53,966 nucleotides of DNA from an uncultured virus (IMG/VR IMGVR_UViG_3300042466_000764). Lineage: Duplodnaviria > Heunggongvirae > Uroviricota > Caudoviricetes. The notes under the pieces were generated by a model, which was not told the origin of the DNA, did no database searches, and saw only the letters and a program-made list of their open reading frames with translations. Both the position numbers and the translations under genes were made by a program. Shown here piece by piece: positions 40,073 to 53,837 of this stretch. The number at the start of each line of letters is the position of its first letter. Position 1 is the first letter of the stretch. The stretch lies in the IMG/VR virus record IMGVR_UViG_3300042466_000764. One strand, given 5' to 3'.

Positions 40073-41596
40073 ATTAATAACTTTAGGACTCTTCGCAGAG
40101 CATTCTTTGTCTTTATAGTATCCTGCATACTATTACTTTCTTGTATTCCATTAGTTAAATCAATTGCTAATCCTCCAACCTATTACCCATCTGGACCACA
40201 ACAAAATGTTGATAAATCTGTAGTTGAATCTGGTGGATGGGCTCTGTGTTGGTCTGGAACTTATGGAGGTACTGATTTATTATCAAATATAACCACTGCT
40301 TGTGATCAAGACTATATTCTATATGCTGGTGGATTAACCAATAACTCAAACTTAATGCTTCTTGCTGCTGGTAAAAGAGAAATGGTATTTACCATTCAAC
40401 CAAACATGTCTAATCAAACTCTATTAGAAAACGGTTCCTATTGGTATTTTAATACAGGCTATGGCTCTATGGGGTTTGCTCCAAATAGTACTATCCAACA
40501 AACTTCTGCAGATACTTATGCTGCATGGGGTGGAAATTTAGATGATGGCTCACTTCGTTTATCTTGGCATACTGGTCATTGTGGAGATGGACAGATTTGT
40601 GGTGGATGGAGAGTAGGAACTGTAGTTGGATTAAATAGTTCAAATGAATATACAAGATATATCTATGAGTCAACTGGTGGTGCTACACCAAGCCCTACCC
40701 CAACACCTACCGAAACACCTACAGAAACTCCAAGTCCTACACCAACACCTACAGAAACACCTACAGAAAGCCCTAGCCCTACTCCTACGCCTACAGAAAC
40801 ACCTAGTCCTGATCCAACTCCAAGTCCAACTCCTGATCCAGTTCAACCAGACCCAAACCCTCAGCCAACATTCGAACCAGAGCCAGTAGTGATAGAGGAA
40901 CCAGAACCAATAGTGATAGAAGAGTTACAACCAGAACCTGTAATCGAACCTTCACTTGAACCAACTCCTATAGAAGAAATTATACCAGTAGAAGAAGAAA
41001 TTAACAATGCTATTGATGAACTAATAGTTAATGAAGAAGAAATTTCAGATGAACAATTGCAAGACATTACAGACTTATTGTTGGATAACTATGAAGTTGA
41101 TGAAGCAATGCCTATTACTGAATTATTAGAAGAGTTAAACGATGAGCAGGTGTTAGAACTTTTAGAACAGTTAGATGAGAATCAAATAATTGAATACCGT
41201 GAAGGTGTTGAGATAGAGGCAGGTGTTGCAGTTATTTTTGAACAACTGTCTGACCCTACAGCCTTAATAGGAGAGTTATTTTCAGACCCAAGTCAAACAT
41301 TTGAAGCACTTGGACAATTGGGTGCTGATATGACAGAAGAAGAAAGAGAAGACTCAGAAGATGTAGTTATTGCATCAGTTATTGCTGTTCAAGCAGTAGG
41401 TGCAGCAATGGCAGCAATACCACCAACCTCAAGTGCACCAACTGGTAGTACATCTGGTCCATCAGGATCTGGTGGAAGTAGTGGTGGGGGAGACGCTGGC
41501 GGCGGTGGCGAAGGCAGCGACAGCAAAAAGAAAAAACTTAAGGTAAAGCGTAAGCCTAAACTTAAGAATCGTAGAAATACAAGGAGGATAAAATGA
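40073..41596 (+). CDS. Secreted, membrane-anchored protein with Pro/Thr stalk (probable ATT start)
   Basis: Frame open from 40073 (preceded by TAA) encoding signal peptide-like NNFRTLRRAFFVFIVSCILLLSCIPLVKSIA, a Trp/Cys globular domain, PT repeats, an acidic region, a hydrophobic segment and a basic tail; the ORF track starts it at ATG 40355. Confidence 0.72.
   Translation: MNNFRTLRRAFFVFIVSCILLLSCIPLVKSIANPPTYYPSGPQQNVDKSVVESGGWALCWSGTYGGTDLLSNITTACDQDYILYAGGLTNNSNLMLLAAGKREMVFTIQPNMSNQTLLENGSYWYFNTGYGSMGFAPNSTIQQTSADTYAAWGGNLDDGSLRLSWHTGHCGDGQICGGWRVGTVVGLNSSNEYTRYIYESTGGATPSPTPTPTETPTETPSPTPTPTETPTESPSPTPTPTETPSPDPTPSPTPDPVQPDPNPQPTFEPEPVVIEEPEPIVIEELQPEPVIEPSLEPTPIEEIIPVEEEINNAIDELIVNEEEISDEQLQDITDLLLDNYEVDEAMPITELLEELNDEQVLELLEQLDENQIIEYREGVEIEAGVAVIFEQLSDPTALIGELFSDPSQTFEALGQLGADMTEEEREDSEDVVIASVIAVQAVGAAMAAIPPTSSAPTGSTSGPSGSGGSSGGGDAGGGGEGSDSKKKKLKVKRKPKLKNRRNTRRIK
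40684..40860 (+). repeat. Pro/Thr-rich tandem coding repeat (TPSPTPTPTETPTE x3)
   Basis: Degenerate 14-aa units visible in both DNA and protein. Confidence 0.8.
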
Positions 41597-42961: not shown

Positions 42962-43138
42962 ATGAATACAGAATTTGAGATTTGGCTGTTACAAGGCATT
43001 GACAAAGGCTGGATAACTGAGCCATTTTGTAGTACTCATGATGGTGGTTTTCAATACATGAGCGAAGAAGAGCAAGAAGAGTGGGACCAAGGCGGCGACC
43101 CATGTTGTTATGTAATTAGATTAATGGAGTTATCTTAA
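42962..43138 (+). CDS. Small acidic Cys/His protein, 58 aa (absent from ORF track)
   Basis: MNTEFEIWLLQGIDKGWITEPFCSTHDGG...GGDPCCYVIRLMELS*; fills the gap exactly, follows the promoter, and its stop overlaps the next ATG. Confidence 0.8.
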   Translation: MNTEFEIWLLQGIDKGWITEPFCSTHDGGFQYMSEEEQEEWDQGGDPCCYVIRLMELS

Positions 43139-44058
43139 TGAAAAAAATGTTTATTGTTTTATCTGTTTTATTTTCAGTACTAGCAGTTCCAGCAAATGCA
43201 GTTGAGAGTCCAACACCAGTTGTTGTTCCAACACCAGTTGTTACACCAACTCCAACACCTATAGTTGAGAGTCCAACACCAGTTGTTGTTCCAACACCAG
43301 TTGTTACACCAACACCAGTTGTTACACCAACTCCAACACCAGCAGTTAATACTAAACCAATTATAATTATTGATAGTTACTTTGATACAAGAGTTGCTAA
43401 CACAACTATTGTTTGTATTGCAACAGATAAGTGTGTAAATACACCAAAACCTTCAAAAAGAGTTTCTGATCCAGTAAATCATGGTATGGCTATGGTTGAA
43501 GTTGCTCGTAGAAATAATCCAGATGTTCCACTTATATTAGTTAGATCTGCAACAGTATCAAACAAAGGTGCAGTTGGAATATTAAATGGTAATGATTTTC
43601 TTGCAGCATTAAAATGGGTAGATGCTAATTCATCAAATGTATCTGCTGTGTCATTTTCTTACGGATTAAGTGGAAATATGAAAAAGCCAGGCGATTGTAA
43701 ACTTTCTCCAACTGGATTAGTTAATGTTAAAATTGTTGATCCAGCAATTAGAGCAACAGTTGCCAGTTTAAAAAATAAAGGTATTCCAGTATTTGTTTCT
43801 ACAGGTAATGATTCAAACAGAAAACCAGTAGCATATCCAGCATGTATCACTGATACAGTTTCTGTTTCTACATTTCCAGTAGGAAATCATGATCAAAATA
43901 CAGATTATTTTGGAGTATTACCAACAGGTAAGTTTAATTATGGCTCAGTGCTGTTTGGTTTAATTCCTCAAACAACATCTTCTGCAAATGTTGCTGTTGC
44001 AACACAATGGCAAAAAGGTCTGATCGTTACTGATAAAATAGTAAAAGTTACAGAATAA
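43138..44058 (+). CDS. Secreted subtilisin-like (S8) peptidase with Pro/Thr/Val linker
   Basis: Signal peptide; IIIDS (Asp), NHGMAM (His), STGND (oxyanion Asn), YPAC, QTTSSA (Ser region). Confidence 0.75.
   Translation: MKKMFIVLSVLFSVLAVPANAVESPTPVVVPTPVVTPTPTPIVESPTPVVVPTPVVTPTPVVTPTPTPAVNTKPIIIIDSYFDTRVANTTIVCIATDKCVNTPKPSKRVSDPVNHGMAMVEVARRNNPDVPLILVRSATVSNKGAVGILNGNDFLAALKWVDANSSNVSAVSFSYGLSGNMKKPGDCKLSPTGLVNVKIVDPAIRATVASLKNKGIPVFVSTGNDSNRKPVAYPACITDTVSVSTFPVGNHDQNTDYFGVLPTGKFNYGSVLFGLIPQTTSSANVAVATQWQKGLIVTDKIVKVTE
43201..43341 (+). repeat. Near-perfect ~60-bp direct repeat with nested 18-bp duplication
   Basis: GTTGAGAGTCCAACACCAGTTGTTGTTCCAACACCAGTTGTTACACCAAC occurs at 43201 and 43264. 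Confidence 0.9.
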
Positions 44059-45761: not shown

Positions 45762-46244
45762 TTGATAATTGAATTAGAACCATGGGAATATGAACACGCC
45801 TATATGGTAGGTATGCGAAGATATACAGAAAATTGGAATAAGGTAGATGCTTCATACTACAATAGATCTAGTATGGAAGAAGATAGAAACGCTCAACCAG
45901 CATCAGCAATTTGTGAACTAGCAGTTGCTAAATATACAAACCAGTATTGGCATGCCTCAGTTTGGGACGGTAGAAAGCATAAGAAGTATAAAGATATGCC
46001 AGACGTAGGAACAAACATAGAAGTAAGAAGAGTAAGAACACAGTCTGGTCCAGCAGTGCGTGAAAAAGATCTTAATCGTGGTTTAATTATTTGGGGTGCA
46101 GAACTATCAGACTCAGAATATAGAACAGTTAATTTGTTGGGTTGGATAGAGGCTGAAAAAGGATATGAAATTGGTATTGATAGAAGTGGGTACAAGGTTA
46201 TACCAAAAGAATTATTAAATAAAGATTGGTCAGAAGAAGAGTGA
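45762..46244 (+). CDS. Hypothetical protein (possible PD-(D/E)xK-like fold)
   Basis: CELAVAKY...PDVGTNIEVR pattern; TTG start. Confidence 0.6.
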   Translation: MIIELEPWEYEHAYMVGMRRYTENWNKVDASYYNRSSMEEDRNAQPASAICELAVAKYTNQYWHASVWDGRKHKKYKDMPDVGTNIEVRRVRTQSGPAVREKDLNRGLIIWGAELSDSEYRTVNLLGWIEAEKGYEIGIDRSGYKVIPKELLNKDWSEEE

Positions 46245-46900
46245 GTAAAGAAATACTTGATCCACTAAGTTTAGATTTTAACATCTGGTATAAATCTAAA
46301 TCTGAATCTTTCTTGTATATAAATGAAAGATCTAGGGTTACTTCAAGATGGCTTTCTTATCAAGAAGGAATTAAAGATCAGTATACTGACAGTATTATAA
46401 AACCAATAAATTTATATGCTAGTAAACTATATCCAAAACCTAAACTATTAAGTATTAAAGGTAGTGAAGTAACGCTGCAACAAACAAATCATGCTGAAAT
46501 ATTTTTACTTCAAAAGGAAGATGGTTTGTATAGTTTAGATAGACCATGGATTAGACAGTACTACTTATCAGATCAAGAGCCTCCTGAGTTGCCCAAAGAT
46601 TGTTTTACTGATGTTTTTAGATTTTATATGCCATGGCTTATTGATGAAGAAATTAAGGCTTTTATAGAGCAGCCAGAGGATTCTCCTTTTGTTATATATC
46701 CAAAAGTTATGAATTTTAAAAAAATACCTAAAGGTACAACAATGATTGAGACTGACTTTGTATACTTTCATTTTAAAGATAAAGGCAACCATATGGTTGA
46801 CAATGAATTTGGTAAAATACCAAGGTATGCCCCAATGTATAACCTTAGATTTCAAGCAAGTGATATAATGATAGAGAGAGTAAGGAAGATGTATGAATAA
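46241..46900 (+). CDS. Hypothetical protein (possibly divergent DUF6065-like)
   Basis: FRFYMPWLID...PEDSPF...GKIPRYAPMY loosely parallels the two downstream genes; GTG 46241. Confidence 0.55.
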   Translation: MSKEILDPLSLDFNIWYKSKSESFLYINERSRVTSRWLSYQEGIKDQYTDSIIKPINLYASKLYPKPKLLSIKGSEVTLQQTNHAEIFLLQKEDGLYSLDRPWIRQYYLSDQEPPELPKDCFTDVFRFYMPWLIDEEIKAFIEQPEDSPFVIYPKVMNFKKIPKGTTMIETDFVYFHFKDKGNHMVDNEFGKIPRYAPMYNLRFQASDIMIERVRKMYE

Positions 46901-47621
46901 AGTTCAGTTTTATCCTTTTAACGATAAGACAGCAATGTTTGCACCACAACCAGAACCAGCATCAAAATTTATTCCAGAGTGGTATAGACAACAACCAGGT
47001 TTTATAGGTGATGAATATAAAGATTTTATTTCTAAAGGTGGTAGTAGCGGAACCATAAAAAGATGTATGCCAATTTTTGATTTAATGACTGCTGGATACA
47101 TTATTAAGTTTCCTATGGACGTGTACGTAGATGCTACCAACCCAGAAAAAATAACATGGAGTGTTCCTAATGAACTTAAATTTGTTGGTAATGACATGGT
47201 TGCAACACACACAGCAGAACAAATATCTAATTATCCTGTTGACGATAACGTGTATCATAAACAAATTTTTAGAATTTTACCATTTTGGTCTATCATGACA
47301 CCAAAAGGATATAGTACTATATTTACTCATCCATTTCATCAAGATGCAGTTCCATTTAAAGCGTTTGAAGCATTTGTTGATACAGATAGGTTTGCATCAG
47401 ATGGACACTTTTCTATGTATATTAAAAAAGATTTTAAGGGTATTATAAAGCAGGGTACGCCATTGATCCAGGCCATACCAGTCAAAAGAGAATCATGGGA
47501 ATCAGAGTGTGTGGCATACTCAATCGGTAAAGATGAGATAGAAAAACAAAGACTAATGGTTAGAAGTAGTTTTAGAAATTCTTATAAAGAAAAGTTTAGA
47601 CAAAAAAAAGAATATAAGTAA
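46893..47621 (+). CDS. DUF6065-like protein A
   Basis: P.PA...PEWY, TIKRCMP.FD..TAGY, TPKGYS...HP, VDTD, IIKQGTPL.Q.IP.KRE.W. Confidence 0.65.
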   Translation: MNKVQFYPFNDKTAMFAPQPEPASKFIPEWYRQQPGFIGDEYKDFISKGGSSGTIKRCMPIFDLMTAGYIIKFPMDVYVDATNPEKITWSVPNELKFVGNDMVATHTAEQISNYPVDDNVYHKQIFRILPFWSIMTPKGYSTIFTHPFHQDAVPFKAFEAFVDTDRFASDGHFSMYIKKDFKGIIKQGTPLIQAIPVKRESWESECVAYSIGKDEIEKQRLMVRSSFRNSYKEKFRQKKEYK

Positions 47622-48385
47622 TGAACGAACCGCTAAAAATATCTTTTACACCAGGTGGTGGAACTAACTATGAAGGTTTGTACACACCTCCAGAGCCTGC
47701 AATTAAACATGTTCCAGAGTGGTACAAAAGTTTAGCCAGACATGAAGTGTGGAATGATGACAAGTTTTTAAATCCAGTTAATAACATTGGTGGAGATGGT
47801 GCTAGAGTTGCAACAAAAATGTGTATGCCTTTTCTTGATTCTTTAACTGCTGGATATTTTTATTTATTAGAACATGATCTATTGGTAGAGTTAGACAAAA
47901 ATGGAAAACCAAAATTATCTTGGGATAGTGAAGTTATGATTGTTGACAAAAGACCAACAATTGATTTGCCAGTACCAGATAACTGTCATCCAATACATTA
48001 TGGATGGAGAATGAACTGGTATTACGAAACACCTCCAGGCTATTCTGTTTTAATTACTCATCCTATGAATAGACATGATTTACCATTTTATACTATGTCT
48101 GGTATTGTTGAATCTGATATTTGGGGCTTACCAGTATTTACGGCTTTCTTTTTAAAGAAAGGTTTTCAAGGAATAATAAAAAAGGGAACTCCAATATTTC
48201 AAATCTTGCCATTTAAAAGAGATAACTGGGAATTAGAGGTAGATGCAAGTATAAAAAAAATAGATGATCATGAGTTTAAGGCAGAGAATAGAAGGTCAAT
48301 GTTGTATGGGTATTATAAAAAAACAGCATGGCGTAAAAAAATATTTGGCATTAAGGGAAAAGAAAATCAAGATGAGCAAGACTGA
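47621..48385 (+). CDS. DUF6065-like protein B
   Basis: PEPA...PEWY, TKMCMPFLDSLTAGY, TPPGYS...HPMNRHDLPF, IIKKGTPIFQILPFKRDNW; paralog of A. Confidence 0.65.
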   Translation: MNEPLKISFTPGGGTNYEGLYTPPEPAIKHVPEWYKSLARHEVWNDDKFLNPVNNIGGDGARVATKMCMPFLDSLTAGYFYLLEHDLLVELDKNGKPKLSWDSEVMIVDKRPTIDLPVPDNCHPIHYGWRMNWYYETPPGYSVLITHPMNRHDLPFYTMSGIVESDIWGLPVFTAFFLKKGFQGIIKKGTPIFQILPFKRDNWELEVDASIKKIDDHEFKAENRRSMLYGYYKKTAWRKKIFGIKGKENQDEQD

Positions 48386-49256
48386 TCTTCCAAATCCAAT
48401 TGATGTAGTAATATATTCATATAAAAATAAAATGTTAAAGGAAGTTGTAGAAAATTTATTAGAAAAGTCATCTAAAAAAAATGCAATATATTTACATATC
48501 TTTGATCAACATACCCTTACAAGGCAAGATTATTTTGATAAGATAGAGAATTGTGGTTATCAGCATATACTTTGGGATAGTATTCTTGGCCCATGTTTTT
48601 ACAAAAATCAATTATTAGAACAGTCTAAGTTTACATATACTATGTTTATGTCTGATAATATATTTTTAAAAGATAATTGGGATGAAGAACTTATTAATGC
48701 TTTGCCAAACTCTGGGTCGATAATATCTATTAAAAATAAAAATAAATTAAAACAAGATGGAATATTTTATTTTAAAAAAGAAGAAGAGGTAGTGGATAAG
48801 TTTACTAGTAGTAAGTTTGTTGGCAGAGATCTTATATTTGGACATACCGAAACGTTACGCAACATTGGATACCCCTCATATTTAAAATACTATGGAGAGG
48901 AAGAAGTCCTGTCTTTAATGTATCACGCTAATAATATAAAAGTATTCTGTTGTCCAGATAATTTTTATAAAAAGGAAGGGCTGAATAACCTTGAAACGCT
49001 TTATACAGTTTTTTCTAAATATCACAATTACAATCAAATGATTAAGTTAATTAAAAATGAAAAAAATGATTATATAGATATAGGTCTTCCCCTCATGTCT
49101 CCTATTTCAGATTTTTATAACATCAATGGCTTGGATATAGAAAAAACACACCCCCTGCCCTTTGAAATTAACGATGTTTTTTATAACCCAACAGATTCAG
49201 AGTTTGACGGTATAGACTCTAAAAGATTTATGACCAAAATAAATTATATTGATTAA
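48372..49256 (+). CDS. Glycosyltransferase, GT-A fold (divergent GT60-like)
   Basis: IDVVIYSYK, GPCFYK, FLKDNWDEELI, YYGEEEVLSL. Confidence 0.6.
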   Translation: MSKTDLPNPIDVVIYSYKNKMLKEVVENLLEKSSKKNAIYLHIFDQHTLTRQDYFDKIENCGYQHILWDSILGPCFYKNQLLEQSKFTYTMFMSDNIFLKDNWDEELINALPNSGSIISIKNKNKLKQDGIFYFKKEEEVVDKFTSSKFVGRDLIFGHTETLRNIGYPSYLKYYGEEEVLSLMYHANNIKVFCCPDNFYKKEGLNNLETLYTVFSKYHNYNQMIKLIKNEKNDYIDIGLPLMSPISDFYNINGLDIEKTHPLPFEINDVFYNPTDSEFDGIDSKRFMTKINYID

Positions 49257-49265
49257 TGATATAAT
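49257..49265 (+). promoter_or_regulatory. Extended -10 (TGATATAAT)
   Basis: Immediately after the stop codon, upstream of ATG 49286. Confidence 0.55.
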
Positions 49266-49285
49266 AGAGAAAAGACAGGAACAGT

Positions 49286-49912
49286 ATGCATAGAATCGCG
49301 GTAGTGGATAATTTCATAACCAAGGAAGACGCAGATACCCTAATAAGGGAACAACACAACCCATCAGAAGTTAATCCGTATCCAGAATACTATAGTAAAA
49401 GATATGGTGGCACATCATTACCATACAATAAAACGGTCATGGATATTATGATTAAGTATGGCAATAAGTCTAACGAAATACACAGATCCTATAATGGGTT
49501 CCTTAATCCAATATATGTGTTTAAAGGTTTTGGATCACATTGGACAAAAGGTACAAGAGGTGGACTACACTTAGATGCACAAGGACCAGAACCATTTATA
49601 GAATTTAGTACAATAATTTATTTAAATGAAACTCCAGAATACCAGGGTGGTAAAATATTTTTTCCTAATCAAGATTTTGTATACCAGCCTAAAAAATATT
49701 CTGCAGTATTCTTTCCAAGTTCTGGTACAGAATATATTCACGGTATTACTGAAGTAACTGAAGGTCATAGATACACTGCACTATATATGCACACATCACT
49801 TCCAGAACATGCAGATCCAGATTTCTTGGGGGAAGATAAGAATCCAACTTGGCAAGCCGTACAGTATCCATTAGAAAGAGAGGCTGCAGAGCGTGACTTC
49901 AATAGATCATGA
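49286..49912 (+). CDS. Prolyl 4-hydroxylase-like 2OG-Fe(II) oxygenase
   Basis: VVDNFIT, LHLD, IIYLN...GGKIFF, IHGITEV..G.RY (HxD...H...R). Confidence 0.85.
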   Translation: MHRIAVVDNFITKEDADTLIREQHNPSEVNPYPEYYSKRYGGTSLPYNKTVMDIMIKYGNKSNEIHRSYNGFLNPIYVFKGFGSHWTKGTRGGLHLDAQGPEPFIEFSTIIYLNETPEYQGGKIFFPNQDFVYQPKKYSAVFFPSSGTEYIHGITEVTEGHRYTALYMHTSLPEHADPDFLGEDKNPTWQAVQYPLEREAAERDFNRS

Positions 49913-50567
49913 AGTATTAGATTTAGGTTTGGTATATTATAAAAATATTGTAAAAAATACTGATCAGATTATAAGAAACATAGAAGACTTAGAAGAAAGG
50001 TTTTTAAATAGTTCCCCAGATATTAAACAAAGAACAGTTGTTCAACCGTGGTCTCCTTGGATTAATGATAGTGCTGGAACAAACGAAATATTTTGTTGGC
50101 AAAAATTTATTCCAACTATGGAACAGATATCAGAAGATGATGCTTTTAAAGATGAACAAAGAAACATATCTTCTAGAATACATGGATCAATTGATGAAGC
50201 ACTATTGCACTATTCAACAAAGTTATATCCATTTGCACAAAAAAATGTTAAAGCAAAAGAACACGCAACTAGTTTATTAAGATATGATAAGTCTGGATAT
50301 CTACCACCACATCAAGACCAGGGGGTGAGTACCAGAGTTTTATCTGTATTGTTATACCTTAATGATGATTACGTTGGCGGAGAGATAACCTTTAAACAAT
50401 CAAATGTAACCATTAAGCCATCAGCAGGTAGCATTGTGTTTTTTCCATCCAACTTTTTATATGTTCACGAAGTTGATTCTGTTTTAAAAGGACCAAGATA
50501 TGCATTACCAACTTGGTTTCATAATGTGCCATCTCACATGATTAGAAACTCTACTGGTCAAGAATGA
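49893..50567 (+). CDS. Prolyl 4-hydroxylase-like 2OG-Fe(II) oxygenase
   Basis: LLRY, PHQD, RVLSVLLYLNDDYVGGEITF, VHEV..V..G.RY...W. Confidence 0.88.
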   Translation: MTSIDHEVLDLGLVYYKNIVKNTDQIIRNIEDLEERFLNSSPDIKQRTVVQPWSPWINDSAGTNEIFCWQKFIPTMEQISEDDAFKDEQRNISSRIHGSIDEALLHYSTKLYPFAQKNVKAKEHATSLLRYDKSGYLPPHQDQGVSTRVLSVLLYLNDDYVGGEITFKQSNVTIKPSAGSIVFFPSNFLYVHEVDSVLKGPRYALPTWFHNVPSHMIRNSTGQE

Positions 50568-50650
50568 AACAAATAATATATAAAATTAAGTTTTATTTTT
50601 GGTTAAGAAAAAATAAAAAACATTTTAAAAAAAGAGATTTTATATATTAA
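50564..50650 (+). CDS. 28-aa basic peptide ending RDFIY (SxtK/DUF5989-like; absent from ORF track)
   Basis: MKQIIYKIKFYFWLRKNKKHFKKRDFIY*; ATGA overlap with the upstream stop; ends 1 nt before the next ATG. Confidence 0.65.
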   Translation: MKQIIYKIKFYFWLRKNKKHFKKRDFIY

Positions 50651-50651
50651 T

Positions 50652-51482
50652 ATGAATTATAAAGATATCATGGATAATGATAAAACAACAAGACCTCAAC
50701 ATTTTAAATACTTGTTACACAAGAATAAAGATATAATTGGACCATTTCTTGATTCGAATTTAAATAAAAAAGATCATAATAATTATATTTCAGACAAACT
50801 AAAAACAGTAGATCCTAGAAAAACAAACATACTGTTTGCTGGATGCTCAATTACTGTTGGGTGTGGTGTAAATGATATTAAAAAAAGTTGGTCATACAAA
50901 CTTTATAATAAAATGAACAAGGATAATGAATGTTCTGGTTATTTTAATATTGGCTGTTCTGGATTCTCTTCAATAGAAATAATGATAAACGTGTTAAAGT
51001 ATATTGCTAAATATGGTTGTCCAGATTTTATTTTTATTCTTTTTCCAAATTGGGGAAGGGATTGGCATAAGTTCAATACTAGTCACAAATCAATGGACGA
51101 TATTAAAAATGGAGAAATATTAGATATTTTTGTTTTTAATCTGTATAGTATTTTGGAAGATATCTGTAAAACTAATAATGCTAAAATTTTTTCTACTAGT
51201 TGGTCTGATCCAATTCCTGGAATAACTGATTTTATAAATGTTGATCTACAAAAGTTTGAAACATATATGAATAAAACAATGAAAGAATCATTTGATAGTT
51301 ATTATGATGTAGATAAAGAACGATTTTCAAAAAATGTATTTTGGTTTATACAAAATAAAGAAAAAAACATGACAATCATAGGAAATGACGGTACCCATCC
51401 AAGCGAAGCAGTTCATTATGCTTGGTTTAAAGAGGCTGAGTTTCAGTTACAGGAGGCTATAAATGTTGATAATGGGAATTAA
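50652..51482 (+). CDS. SGNH/GDSL hydrolase-like protein
   Basis: FAGCSITVGCG, FNIGCSGFS, DGTHPSEAVH; paralog of 36678-37730. Confidence 0.78.
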   Translation: MNYKDIMDNDKTTRPQHFKYLLHKNKDIIGPFLDSNLNKKDHNNYISDKLKTVDPRKTNILFAGCSITVGCGVNDIKKSWSYKLYNKMNKDNECSGYFNIGCSGFSSIEIMINVLKYIAKYGCPDFIFILFPNWGRDWHKFNTSHKSMDDIKNGEILDIFVFNLYSILEDICKTNNAKIFSTSWSDPIPGITDFINVDLQKFETYMNKTMKESFDSYYDVDKERFSKNVFWFIQNKEKNMTIIGNDGTHPSEAVHYAWFKEAEFQLQEAINVDNGN

Positions 51483-52896
51483 TGAAACAACACATGATGC
51501 TTCTATATCTTTAATTAAAGATGATAAGGTGTTATTTTCTGGACACGCAGAAAGATATAGCAAAGTTAAAAATGATTGGTTTACCAACAAGGGTTTAATA
51601 GATAATGCATTGGAGTATGGGATTCCAGATCAAATAGCCTACTATGAAAATCCATTTTTAAAAAAACTAAGAGTTAAAACTTGTGGTGGTTTTGGTGGCG
51701 GTAAGCCTTGGTTTGAACATACTTATCTTAATGCAATACCAAGAACTAATTTTAAACATCACTACTCGCATGCAGCAGCAGGGTACTATACTAGCAAGTT
51801 TGACGATGCAGTGATAGTAGTACTTGATTCAATTGGAGAATTTAATACCTCTACCATTTGGGCTGGAGAAGGAAATGATATTAAGTTAATGTACAAAGAT
51901 AATTATCCCTTTAGTTTTGGTTTATTTTATTCTGCGTTTACTCAACTTATTGGTCTGATACCAAACCAAGAAGAGTACATAATGATGGGCATGGCTGCCT
52001 ATGGAGATAAACAAAAATATCTTAAAAAGGTTTTAGAATACTTTCCATCAATTGGATATCAAAAATATAATTTTCATAAAGGAATTTTTGATTGGGGATC
52101 AGAAATAACTGAGCAAGATAGGTTTGATATTGCCGCAGCAGTACAAGAAGTTTATCAAATAAAGTTAATAGATTTTATGTATATGGCAAAAAGATTAACT
52201 AAGAAAAATAAATTAGTTTTTATGGGTGGGTGTGCTCTTAATTGTTCTGCTAATACATTGTTGTGGAATATATTTGATGATATATGGATTATGCCAAACC
52301 CTGGAGATGCTGGAAGTTCTTTGGGTGCTGCGGCAGCCTTGTATGGAAAGCATGTTGACTTTAAGACACCGTTTCTTGGTTATGATTTAGGAGATAAATA
52401 TCCAGTAGATTCAGCATTAAATGAAATAGTGAATGGTGGAATTGCGGCGATAGCAAGTGGAAGAGCAGAATATGGACCAAGAGCATTAGGTAATAGAAGT
52501 ATATTGGCAGACCCTAGAGATCCAAACATTAAAGATAAGGTTAATAATATTAAAAAGCGTGAACTCTTTAGACCCTTTGCACCAGTTGTGATGGAAGAGC
52601 ATGCAAGTAAATGGTTTGATATGAATTTTACAAGTCCTTATATGCAGTATGCAGTTAAGTGTTTAAAGCCAGATTTGATACCGTCCGTTGTTCATAAAGA
52701 TGGTACCTCTAGGGTTCAGACTGTAAATAAAGATCAGCATCCTGGACTATACGACCTGTTATCCAGATGGTACAAAATATCAAAGGTACCAGTTTTGCTT
52801 AATACCAGTTTAAATATTAAGGGTCAACCATTGCTTAATGACGAGAGTGATATAATTAATTGGGAACAAACATACGGAGCAAGGATAATAAGATGA
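51463..52896 (+). CDS. O-carbamoyltransferase (NodU/CmcH/TobZ family)
   Basis: THDAS, ERYSKVKND, HHYSHAA, LDSIGE, EYIMMGMAAYG, GGCALN, PGDAGSSLGA, EYGPRALGNRS, RELFRPFAP, HKDGTSRVQTV, LNTSLN. Confidence 0.95.
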   Translation: MLIMGINETTHDASISLIKDDKVLFSGHAERYSKVKNDWFTNKGLIDNALEYGIPDQIAYYENPFLKKLRVKTCGGFGGGKPWFEHTYLNAIPRTNFKHHYSHAAAGYYTSKFDDAVIVVLDSIGEFNTSTIWAGEGNDIKLMYKDNYPFSFGLFYSAFTQLIGLIPNQEEYIMMGMAAYGDKQKYLKKVLEYFPSIGYQKYNFHKGIFDWGSEITEQDRFDIAAAVQEVYQIKLIDFMYMAKRLTKKNKLVFMGGCALNCSANTLLWNIFDDIWIMPNPGDAGSSLGAAAALYGKHVDFKTPFLGYDLGDKYPVDSALNEIVNGGIAAIASGRAEYGPRALGNRSILADPRDPNIKDKVNNIKKRELFRPFAPVVMEEHASKWFDMNFTSPYMQYAVKCLKPDLIPSVVHKDGTSRVQTVNKDQHPGLYDLLSRWYKISKVPVLLNTSLNIKGQPLLNDESDIINWEQTYGARIIR

Positions 52897-53837
52897 ATAA
52901 AAAAATATTTGTATCTATACCAGCATGGGAAGATGTGCATTTGGTAGATACTATGAATCATATTTTAGACACTGCATACTACCCTGAAAATATTGTATTT
53001 GGACTTGGTTTAAACTATAAAGAAGAGCCAGATCTATCAATGTTTAACAATGTAAGGATAGTTAGAGATCAAGACATAGCAGATGGAAAGCCAGGCATAG
53101 TAGGCATTAGAGAGGCTATAAGGGGTCTAATAGAGGATGAGCAGTACTTTTTAGGTATAGATGCCCACGCAGATTTTGAACTTAACTGGGATACTACTCT
53201 AATGGATGACATAGAAGAGTTAACAAAAAATAATGAAAAAAGAATTATATCTAGACAGGCTACAGCCAAAGTTCAAGGTAAACGTAATTGGAAAACAAGG
53301 TGGGTTGTAGATGGAACTTTTAATGAATTAGATTTACATGGAGAGGTAGTTGAGTTTGACGTAGCACTAGATAAAGATAAGGTTAATGATAAATATTTTA
53401 AAAATTATTATATTTCTTGTAATTTTATTTTTGCAAAATGTTCTGACATTAAAGCAATAGAATTTCCTTCATATCACAGATTTCCTTTTGAAGAACCAGA
53501 GCAATCTATAGCAGTATATTGTCAAGACTATGATGTGGTTGCACCATATGCTGATGCTATCGTTCATTATGCTGGTAACGATATTAAGTATTCATTTCCA
53601 TATGATGAAAGATGGTGGAAGTTTGTTGGTACTGATCGCAACAATCCAAACCATTGGACTAGGATATGGGTTCTTGATGATGACGATATGACAAAAGAAG
53701 TTAAAAAAATAATGATACTTGGTAGAAACAAATATTTTACCTTTTTGGAATATACAAGAAGCATTATAGATTTTTATGAAGAGATAGATATGATAGAAAG
53801 TTATTGGGAAATAAGAAAAAGTATAATAGGTAATTAG
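52893..53837 (+). CDS. GT60-family (Skp1-type hydroxyproline GlcNAc-transferase-like) glycosyltransferase
   Basis: IFVSIPAWED...A.YPENIVFGL, EQYFLGIDAH..F..NWD..L, SCNFIF, FEE...YDVVAP resemble the GT60 (Pfam GlcNAc) family. Confidence 0.75.
   Translation: MNKKIFVSIPAWEDVHLVDTMNHILDTAYYPENIVFGLGLNYKEEPDLSMFNNVRIVRDQDIADGKPGIVGIREAIRGLIEDEQYFLGIDAHADFELNWDTTLMDDIEELTKNNEKRIISRQATAKVQGKRNWKTRWVVDGTFNELDLHGEVVEFDVALDKDKVNDKYFKNYYISCNFIFAKCSDIKAIEFPSYHRFPFEEPEQSIAVYCQDYDVVAPYADAIVHYAGNDIKYSFPYDERWWKFVGTDRNNPNHWTRIWVLDDDDMTKEVKKIMILGRNKYFTFLEYTRSIIDFYEEIDMIESYWEIRKSIIGN

Follow-up and report, generated by a model that had tools for sequence, protein, structure and literature searches.

A candidate repeat-matched protein-tailoring cassette beside a carbamoyl module in an uncultured tailed phage

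What would a tailed phage do with adjoining genes for hydroxylation, glycosylation and carbamoylation? The question is raised by a stretch of 53,966 nucleotides from an uncultured virus (IMG/VR record IMGVR_UViG_3300042466_000764), here called the window in its whole length, in which a tight run of such genes occupies positions 48372 to 53837. A sequence-only reading of the window had proposed that this run encodes one complete, ordered assembly line resembling the modification of Skp1 in Dictyostelium. All the genes that it listed are where it placed them, intact and co-oriented, with intergenic gaps of -20 to +29 bases (Table 1). By comparing related loci, we arrive at a different organization: the region is two tailoring modules plus an accessory transferase, that is, three separable parts and not one assembly line. 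We propose that the first part is a protein-tailoring cassette matched to a type of sequence repeat, and that it stands beside an independent carbamoyl relay and an accessory glycosyltransferase of family GT60, a reading whose chances we put as evenly balanced. It draws on gene content, motifs, folds and co-variation; the reactions, substrates and virion location are putative.

Conservation of the core and its components

Related loci were sampled for three of the genes (the best 80 of 568 for the carbamoyltransferase, 79 of 102 for GT2 and 80 of 139 for GT1), clustered at 90% identity and counted as flanked when 3 kb was available on both sides, which applied to 30 of 34 GT1, 15 of 17 carbamoyltransferase and 38 of 56 GT2-like clusters. 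Gene b, genes of the c/d family and an oxygenase of the prolyl 4-hydroxylase (P4H) type accompany GT1 in all 30 flanked clusters, an SGNH protein in 17 and GT2 in six. The carbamoyltransferase lies within 6 kb of GT1, on either side, in 28/30, a figure that may be inflated because carbamoyltransferase loci supplied the seed sequences for the GT1 profile. The order b-c-d-GT1-P4H is kept in 30/30 clusters at GT1 identities of 26-38%, with one or two P4H-type oxygenases in the core. This conserved core begins at 46226, some 2 kb upstream of the run named above, and the three genes at 46226-48385, which the sequence-only reading had left out, belong to its most conserved block.

Around the carbamoyltransferase, SGNH proteins occur in 13 of the 15 flanked clusters, GT1 in six and GT2 in two; around GT2-like genes, P4H-type oxygenases occur in 24 of 38, the carbamoyltransferase in 14, c/d-family genes in nine and GT1 in eight. 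Whole-record searches found no GT1 in the complete, carbamoyltransferase-bearing records G003, G004, G010 and G196, and detected no carbamoyltransferase in the near-complete, GT1-bearing records G174 and G194. An intact GT60 gene (GT2) is accessory, being near the core in 6/30 clusters, and was not detected in the near-complete core-bearing records G011, G014, G015, G017, G019, G194 and G198. The co-occurrence in relatives that had been suggested as a check therefore holds for GT1 with the oxygenases and with the carbamoyltransferase, but not for the intact GT60.

Both oxygenases score above the PF13640 cut-off, and the HxD...H...R motifs reported for them are invariant among their orthologues (H95-x-D97..H152..R162 in 56/56 for P4H1; H140-x-D142..H192..R202 in 36/36 for P4H2). 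Their matches to characterized enzymes, namely P3H1, Bacillus P4H and PKHD/PiuC, are all at E ~1e-4 or weaker.

The description of both glycosyltransferases as GT60-like is accurate for GT2 and only partly so for GT1. GT2 is a true PF11397 member (49.7 bits against a cut-off of 21) with the motif D90-A-H92 and downstream E200-E201, and D-[ASC]-H is present in 73/73 rows of its family; a search of PDB sequences with the GT2 alignment returned nothing relevant. GT1 is a full-length paralogue of the GT2 family (hhalign probability 98.4, E 5.9e-15), with a PF11397 score of 16.3 bits that falls below the cut-off. Its model best matches polypeptide N-acetylgalactosaminyltransferases (Z 19.6 and 18.6; for the top match, a root-mean-square deviation (rmsd) of 3.4 with 248 residues aligned). 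In this phage, S-D-N stands at the place of the GT60 D-x-H, and DxH occurs in 0/60 distinct GT1-family sequences (SDN 26, TPG 11, SDD 8, GDS 7, other 8). GT1 is probably either a peptide-binding pseudo-enzyme or a metal-independent transferase. In one complete genome (G198:C1:6286-7143), the GT1 match is interrupted by a single TGA stop.

Genes c and d are paralogues, c matching phrog_7084 (E 6e-47) and d matching PF19541 (DUF6065) below the cut-off (E 7e-5), and neither has a Pfam dUTPase match. The model of d (predicted local distance difference test score 76.8) resembles dUTPases (Foldseek E 2e-4; VIA Z 9.1; rmsd 3.6 over 120 residues), and the same fold is predicted for c from this model. 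Of the five dUTPase catalytic motifs, only remnants of I, III and IV can be made out by eye. Gene b has no Pfam or PHROG match and its ESM Atlas matches are <0.8, none of them usable; its weak likeness to c/d (hhalign E 0.011, probability 3.9) suggests that it is possibly a third dUTPase-fold paralogue. In the ESM Atlas, gene d finds only nameless or DUF6065 clusters, and a homologue search with c/d gave 1467 proteins, of which the 120 listed are all unnamed or hypothetical. A c/d-family gene is present in 20/20 related records. In more distant phages (L110, L112-L116, L118, L122, L148), an intact GT60-like gene is followed directly by one or two c/d-family genes.

Repeat-tailed proteins and cassette type

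Two proteins of this phage, with Fn3 and PASTA domains, respectively, are encoded among fibre-type genes 11 and 19 kb upstream of the window. Each carries an (FGFSPFxV)n tail ahead of a Hint-like domain, whose family profile matches inteins (E 6e-9 to 2lwy), and these tails are the best candidate substrate. A PT-repeat had been suggested instead, but its carrier protein has a hydrophobic, signal-like N-terminus and the Phe/Pro repeat tail is the better candidate. Within the window, two proteins have Pro/Thr-rich linkers (43138-44058 and 40355-41596), the first with a hydrophobic N-terminus and with what we take, by eye, to be subtilase-like motifs.

Cassette type tracks repeat type across relatives. 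GT1-bearing records with a readable repeat (n=20) have F[S/T]PF in 17 cases, other types in three (G007, G174, G175) and polyproline in none; G201, in which GT1 is present and the repeat was not read, is outside this count. The nine records without GT1 that are at least 80% complete have polyproline-type repeats in eight cases and Gly-Ala-Phe in one. Among records at least 90% complete that were not chosen for GT1 or carbamoyltransferase, GT1 is present in 2/2 with F[S/T]PF and 0/3 with polyproline. In support of this, two scans with the Fn3 part yielded 130 loci, of which 55 were dropped as duplicate or unrecognised and nine for short flanks, leaving 66 (five unclassified by repeat type). Polyproline-repeat genes are followed within 6 kb by a DUF6065 gene and at least three P4H-like genes in 46/46 loci, and by GT1 in none. 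Behind F[S/T]PF genes (15 loci), this array occurs in 0/15 and DUF6065 in none, while a His-motif protein family, here called OX40, is found in 14/15 and the b/c/d/GT1 core in three. OX40 is represented in this phage by two paralogues directly behind the Fn3-repeat gene (L081:9919-11210, minus strand) with a conserved H-x-H and a later His; it has no meaningful Pfam match (none at all for the first member) and is called putatively oxygenase-like from His motifs seen by eye.

In G009, L354, L419 and L446, the repeat gene is immediately followed by the core. G009 belongs to a distant capsid clade, and G171 and G003, its relatives by capsid, show a polyproline gene and the oxygenase array at that place. 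Cassette swaps are found in both of the groups parted by the deepest split of the capsid tree, which has full support, and the GT1 label requires five changes on the 22-row tree of records with a full capsid match, at least two of these changes being forced by well-supported branches. Collagen-like genes were considered as a marker of the substrate and rejected, as they are present with and without the core (12/20 records). The fibre-type genes of this phage include a collagen-like protein (L082:8563-9291, minus strand) and an Anp1-like glycosyltransferase (L082:2839-3570, minus strand).

One alternative is that the region is a loose accessory island, where unrelated hydroxylases, transferases and esterases gather at a recombination hot spot and act on differing host or phage targets, in metabolism or at the cell surface. 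Other oxygenases and glycosyltransferases are indeed numerous elsewhere in this phage, cyanophages carry scattered 2-oxoglutarate (2OG) oxygenases and carbamoyltransferases (PMC3037559), and loci differ in how many SGNH copies they have (0 to 4). A five-gene order that stays fixed at such GT1 divergence, in a cassette that matches the repeat type, argues the other way, and we regard the island as doubtful, although it survives better than the remaining alternatives.

Table 1. Coordinates of the core, the carbamoyl module, the accessory transferase and the candidate substrate proteins
Feature	Position	Strand	Description
Gene b	46226..46900	+	Conserved protein, first gene of core block; possibly divergent third dUTPase-fold paralogue
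Gene c	46893..47621	+	Matches phrog_7084; predicted dUTPase fold with K-x-C-x-P-x-x-D motif and changes in the canonical dUTPase motifs
Gene d	47621..48385	+	DUF6065-related; trimeric dUTPase/dCTP-deaminase fold predicted from model
GT1	48372..49256	+	GT60/GT27-like GT-A protein without DxH metal motif
P4H1	49286..49912	+	Prolyl-hydroxylase-type 2OG-Fe(II) oxygenase; immediately after GT1 in all flanked clusters
P4H2	49893..50567	+	Second prolyl-hydroxylase-type 2OG-Fe(II) oxygenase
Micro-protein	50564..50650	+	28 amino acids, Lys-rich, ends aromatic-Ile-Tyr; candidate carbamoyl shuttle
SGNH-fold protein	50652..51482	+	Ser/Asp/His motifs; candidate carbamoyl transferase or esterase
O-carbamoyltransferase	51463..52896	+	NodU/CmcH/TobZ family, full length, both domains
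GT2	52893..53837	+	GT60-family (PF11397) glycosyltransferase, DxH intact; accessory
Fn3 repeat protein	C276 56652-57899 = L081:11253-12500	-	(FGFSPFxV)n tail, then Hint-like domain
PASTA repeat protein	C276 64979-65875 = L082:5480-6376	-	(FGFSPFxV)n tail, then Hint-like domain

The carbamoyl module and its independence

The O-carbamoyltransferase is full length, as had been claimed: both Pfam domains are found (PF02543 E 4e-33; PF16861 E 6e-52), the Kae1-like and YrdC-like domains have their conserved motifs, and its PDB relatives are TobZ, NovN and GdmN (E 1e-37 to 1e-50). The SGNH assignment also stands, on block I Ser66 and block V Asp246/His249, all present, together with a weak Pfam match (E 0.02). 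SGNH proteins, and often the micro-protein too, accompany the carbamoyltransferase. The micro-protein belongs to a family of Lys-rich peptides with an [FY][IVL]Y ending; the terminal Tyr is invariant in 24/24 aligned members, which were selected by that ending. With a loose filter, an aromatic-x-Tyr tail occurs in 126/871 small open reading frames (ORFs) near a carbamoyltransferase versus 31/1360 far from one, and with a strict filter a carbamoyltransferase is at most 3.5 kb away from 107/113 micro-protein copies, a count that includes redundant loci. The micro-protein is nearby in only 16 of 36 flanked carbamoyltransferase clusters. No SGNH protein with a fused Tyr tail was found among 108 distinct sequences.

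Similar arrangements exist elsewhere. The cultured Ralstonia phage RsoM2USA has the gene order SGNH (DUF6071), 36-amino-acid ORF, SGNH (DUF6071), carbamoyltransferase; its small ORF (L263:6038-6148) is unannotated and ends in FIY plus one residue. Bacterial DUF5989 micro-proteins occur in 56/151 genomes of one phylum, a carbamoyltransferase adjoins the DUF5989 gene in 11/12 fetched loci, and six aligned DUF5989 copies share an invariant FIY-containing C-terminal motif. Such loci presumably include sxtI/sxtK of the saxitoxin cluster. By analogy, the carbamoyl module resembles the DltX/PatA tyrosine acyl shuttle, in which an FXYXXF tyrosine works between MBOAT and SGNH proteins (PMC12148441, accessible part). 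The C-terminal F-x-Y-x-x-F hexapeptide is absent from the aligned phage peptides, which end at Tyr. A predicted complex of a relative's carbamoyltransferase with its 30-amino-acid peptide gave no answer (score 0.00) and says nothing either way.

The separate occurrence of these modules bears on the single line originally proposed, in which a hydroxyproline would be formed, given GlcNAc by a GT60 enzyme and carbamoylated, all on one substrate. PhyA followed by Gnt1 is a precedent (PMC6939170, accessible part), all the activities are adjacent and translationally coupled in this phage, the carbamoyltransferase is close to GT1 in most clusters, and a P4H-like gene lies within 6 kb of GT60-like genes in 24/38. 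Yet GT1 has no DxH in any of its 60 sequences, an intact GT60 is near the core in a minority of clusters and undetected in several near-complete core-bearing records, and the modules are found apart in near-complete genomes; we therefore consider one ordered line improbable.

Least probable of all is modification of DNA or nucleotides, in which an oxygenase-hydroxylated base would be glycosylated or carbamoylated and dUTPase-fold proteins would handle the modified nucleotides: the predicted nucleotide-handling fold of c and d, a faint Tet_JBP match of P4H2 (E 0.014, 15.1 bits against a cut-off of 34.9) and a phage carbamoyltransferase known to act on 5-hydroxymethylcytosine (PMC8670742, accessible part) speak for it, whereas the glycosyltransferases are polypeptide-type by model, and PF00303 (thymidylate-synthase/dCMP-hydroxymethylase-like) and PF00145 (C5 methylase) occur in 0/20 related records. 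The same two families were found in 0/11 records at least 90% complete, with positive controls and with the genome of this phage only partly covered. According to the accessible part of PMC8670742, DNA-modifying carbamoyltransferases co-occur with thymidylate synthase, and those of unmodified contigs adjoin glycosyltransferases. Polypeptide-type transferases and the lack of DNA-route partner genes in related records thus favor a protein target over the DNA target named earlier as the alternative. A DNA route by way of the dUTPase-fold proteins is conceivable.

Proposed mechanism and relation to known systems

In the repeat-matched reading, the core (b, c, d, GT1, P4H1 and P4H2) would act on fibre-region proteins of the phage itself, modifying their Phe/Gly/Pro repeat tail. 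P4H1 and P4H2 would hydroxylate the repeat, most likely at its proline, and GT1 together with the dUTPase-fold proteins would most likely serve in recognising or holding the repeat, and not in the usual metal-dependent sugar transfer. Enzymes of the carbamoyltransferase family make carbamoyl-AMP from carbamoyl phosphate and ATP. By analogy with the acyl shuttle, the phage enzyme would form this intermediate and load the terminal Tyr of the micro-protein, from which the SGNH serine would transfer the carbamoyl group onto a hydroxyl, probably that of a sugar. GT2, where present, may add N-acetylhexosamine to Ser/Thr or hydroxyproline of such repeat proteins. No strongly hydrophobic 19-residue window is found in the ten proteins encoded at 46226-53837 (maximum 1.19), and since all are predicted to be soluble, they would act in the cytoplasm of the infected cell. 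More tentatively, the system may be likened to ribosomally synthesised and post-translationally modified peptides, with a multi-copy Phe/Pro core peptide in the fibre proteins, released or capped by Hint, and a sequence-matched, exchangeable cassette; substrate reading for the oxygenases would fall to a heterotrimer of dUTPase-fold proteins and a GT60-like protein that works without metal, and a separate soluble tyrosine shuttle would run from the carbamoyltransferase to the SGNH transferase.

Several points weigh against this proposal. The links are all genomic, the records are related, so that counts are neither independent nor phylogenetically corrected, and most core-bearing records were selected by GT1 presence. 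The repeats of the core-bearing G007, G174 and G175 have few or no Ser/Thr-Pro, and a long distance separates the core from the repeat gene in most relatives as well as in this phage. Proline as the target residue is putative, because the oxygenases resemble prolyl hydroxylases no more strongly than PKHD-type enzymes, both matches being weak. As for the carbamoyl module, it is found with either repeat type and may thus act on an acceptor that has nothing to do with the core's substrate; of the 36 flanked carbamoyltransferase clusters, 20 lack a peptide within 3.5 kb and 11 lack an SGNH protein; the phage peptide ends without the last three residues of FXYXXF and has no profile similarity to DUF5989 (E 0.13).

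The window is a segment of a tailed phage, with capsid, tape measure, DnaB, primase, DnaE and RecA genes and three tRNAs. The phage is present as two contigs (C276 and C248, overlapping by 127 bases), and the window is contiguous, as records L018 and L001, 100% identical, cross the joint between them. Both contigs were binned into the cellular genome assembly G000, a candidate host link. A WhiB gene, which suggests an actinobacterial host (PMC10202952, accessible part), lies downstream of the window in a record that matches it at 100% identity where the overlap was tested; the host is probably among lake actinobacteria. Also downstream are an S-adenosylmethionine decarboxylase gene (L018 14040-14420) and a second sugar-related cluster with a GT61 glycosyltransferase, a nucleotidyltransferase and two small enzymes (L018:14918-17393). 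Promoter and terminator scans gave chance-level results (40 vs 47.6; 2 vs 3.1), and three RNA-library assemblies contained only 13 short pieces, which give no evidence on expression or operon structure.

Prolyl-hydroxylase-like genes are abundant among the auxiliary genes of aquatic viruses, where their use is described as cryptic (PMC9301287, accessible part). Our analysis gives these long-unexplained phage enzymes a specific, synthesisable candidate substrate and predicts which enzyme set pairs with which repeat type. Should the proposal prove true, it would mean that phages use sequence-matched cassettes to complete the chemistry of their own appendages. It would also widen the tyrosine shuttle from acylation to include carbamoylation and assign a function to dUTPase-fold proteins of the DUF6065 type. 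We found no published description of such a cassette in a search that most subscription papers and supplements fell outside and that did not include the repeat proteins; the literature searched gave no paper on DUF6065 and none linking phage, carbamoyltransferase, glycosyltransferase and 2OG-Fe oxygenase.

Known systems share parts of this arrangement. Virion glycosylation in mycobacteriophages (Freeman 2023, as cited in the accessible part of PMC11256854) and the chlorovirus prolyl 4-hydroxylase (Eriksson 1999, as cited in that of PMC9301287) are likewise cases in which a virus encodes enzymes that act, or are believed to act, on its own proteins; the enzyme sets are other ones, and those excerpts do not mention a repeat-matched cassette, carbamoylation or dUTPase-fold partners. 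The phage 5-hydroxymethylcytosine system has a carbamoyltransferase of the same family, but its thymidylate-synthase-homologue partner, as described in the available part of that source, was not found in 20 related records. Bacterial DUF5989 loci are similar in that a micro-protein with an FIY motif comes after the carbamoyltransferase, although DUF5989 differs in a hydrophobic segment and three additional residues. With the DltB/DltX/DltD and PatA/PatB shuttles, as far as the available text describes them, the phage has in common a donor-loading enzyme, a micro-protein with a terminal aromatic-x-Tyr and an SGNH protein; its loader is a soluble carbamoyltransferase in place of an MBOAT protein, its peptide has no membrane helix and ends at Tyr, and its version of the shuttle is a prediction. 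Finally, hydroxyproline glycosylation of Skp1 in Dictyostelium and Toxoplasma, by PhyA and Gnt1 of CAZy family GT60 (again from the accessible part of PMC6939170), likewise combines a soluble P4H-type oxygenase with a GT60-family transferase. The phage differs in having no Skp1 target and a conserved glycosyltransferase without DxH, and in adding predicted dUTPase-fold partners, a carbamoyl module and a multi-copy repeat as candidate substrate.

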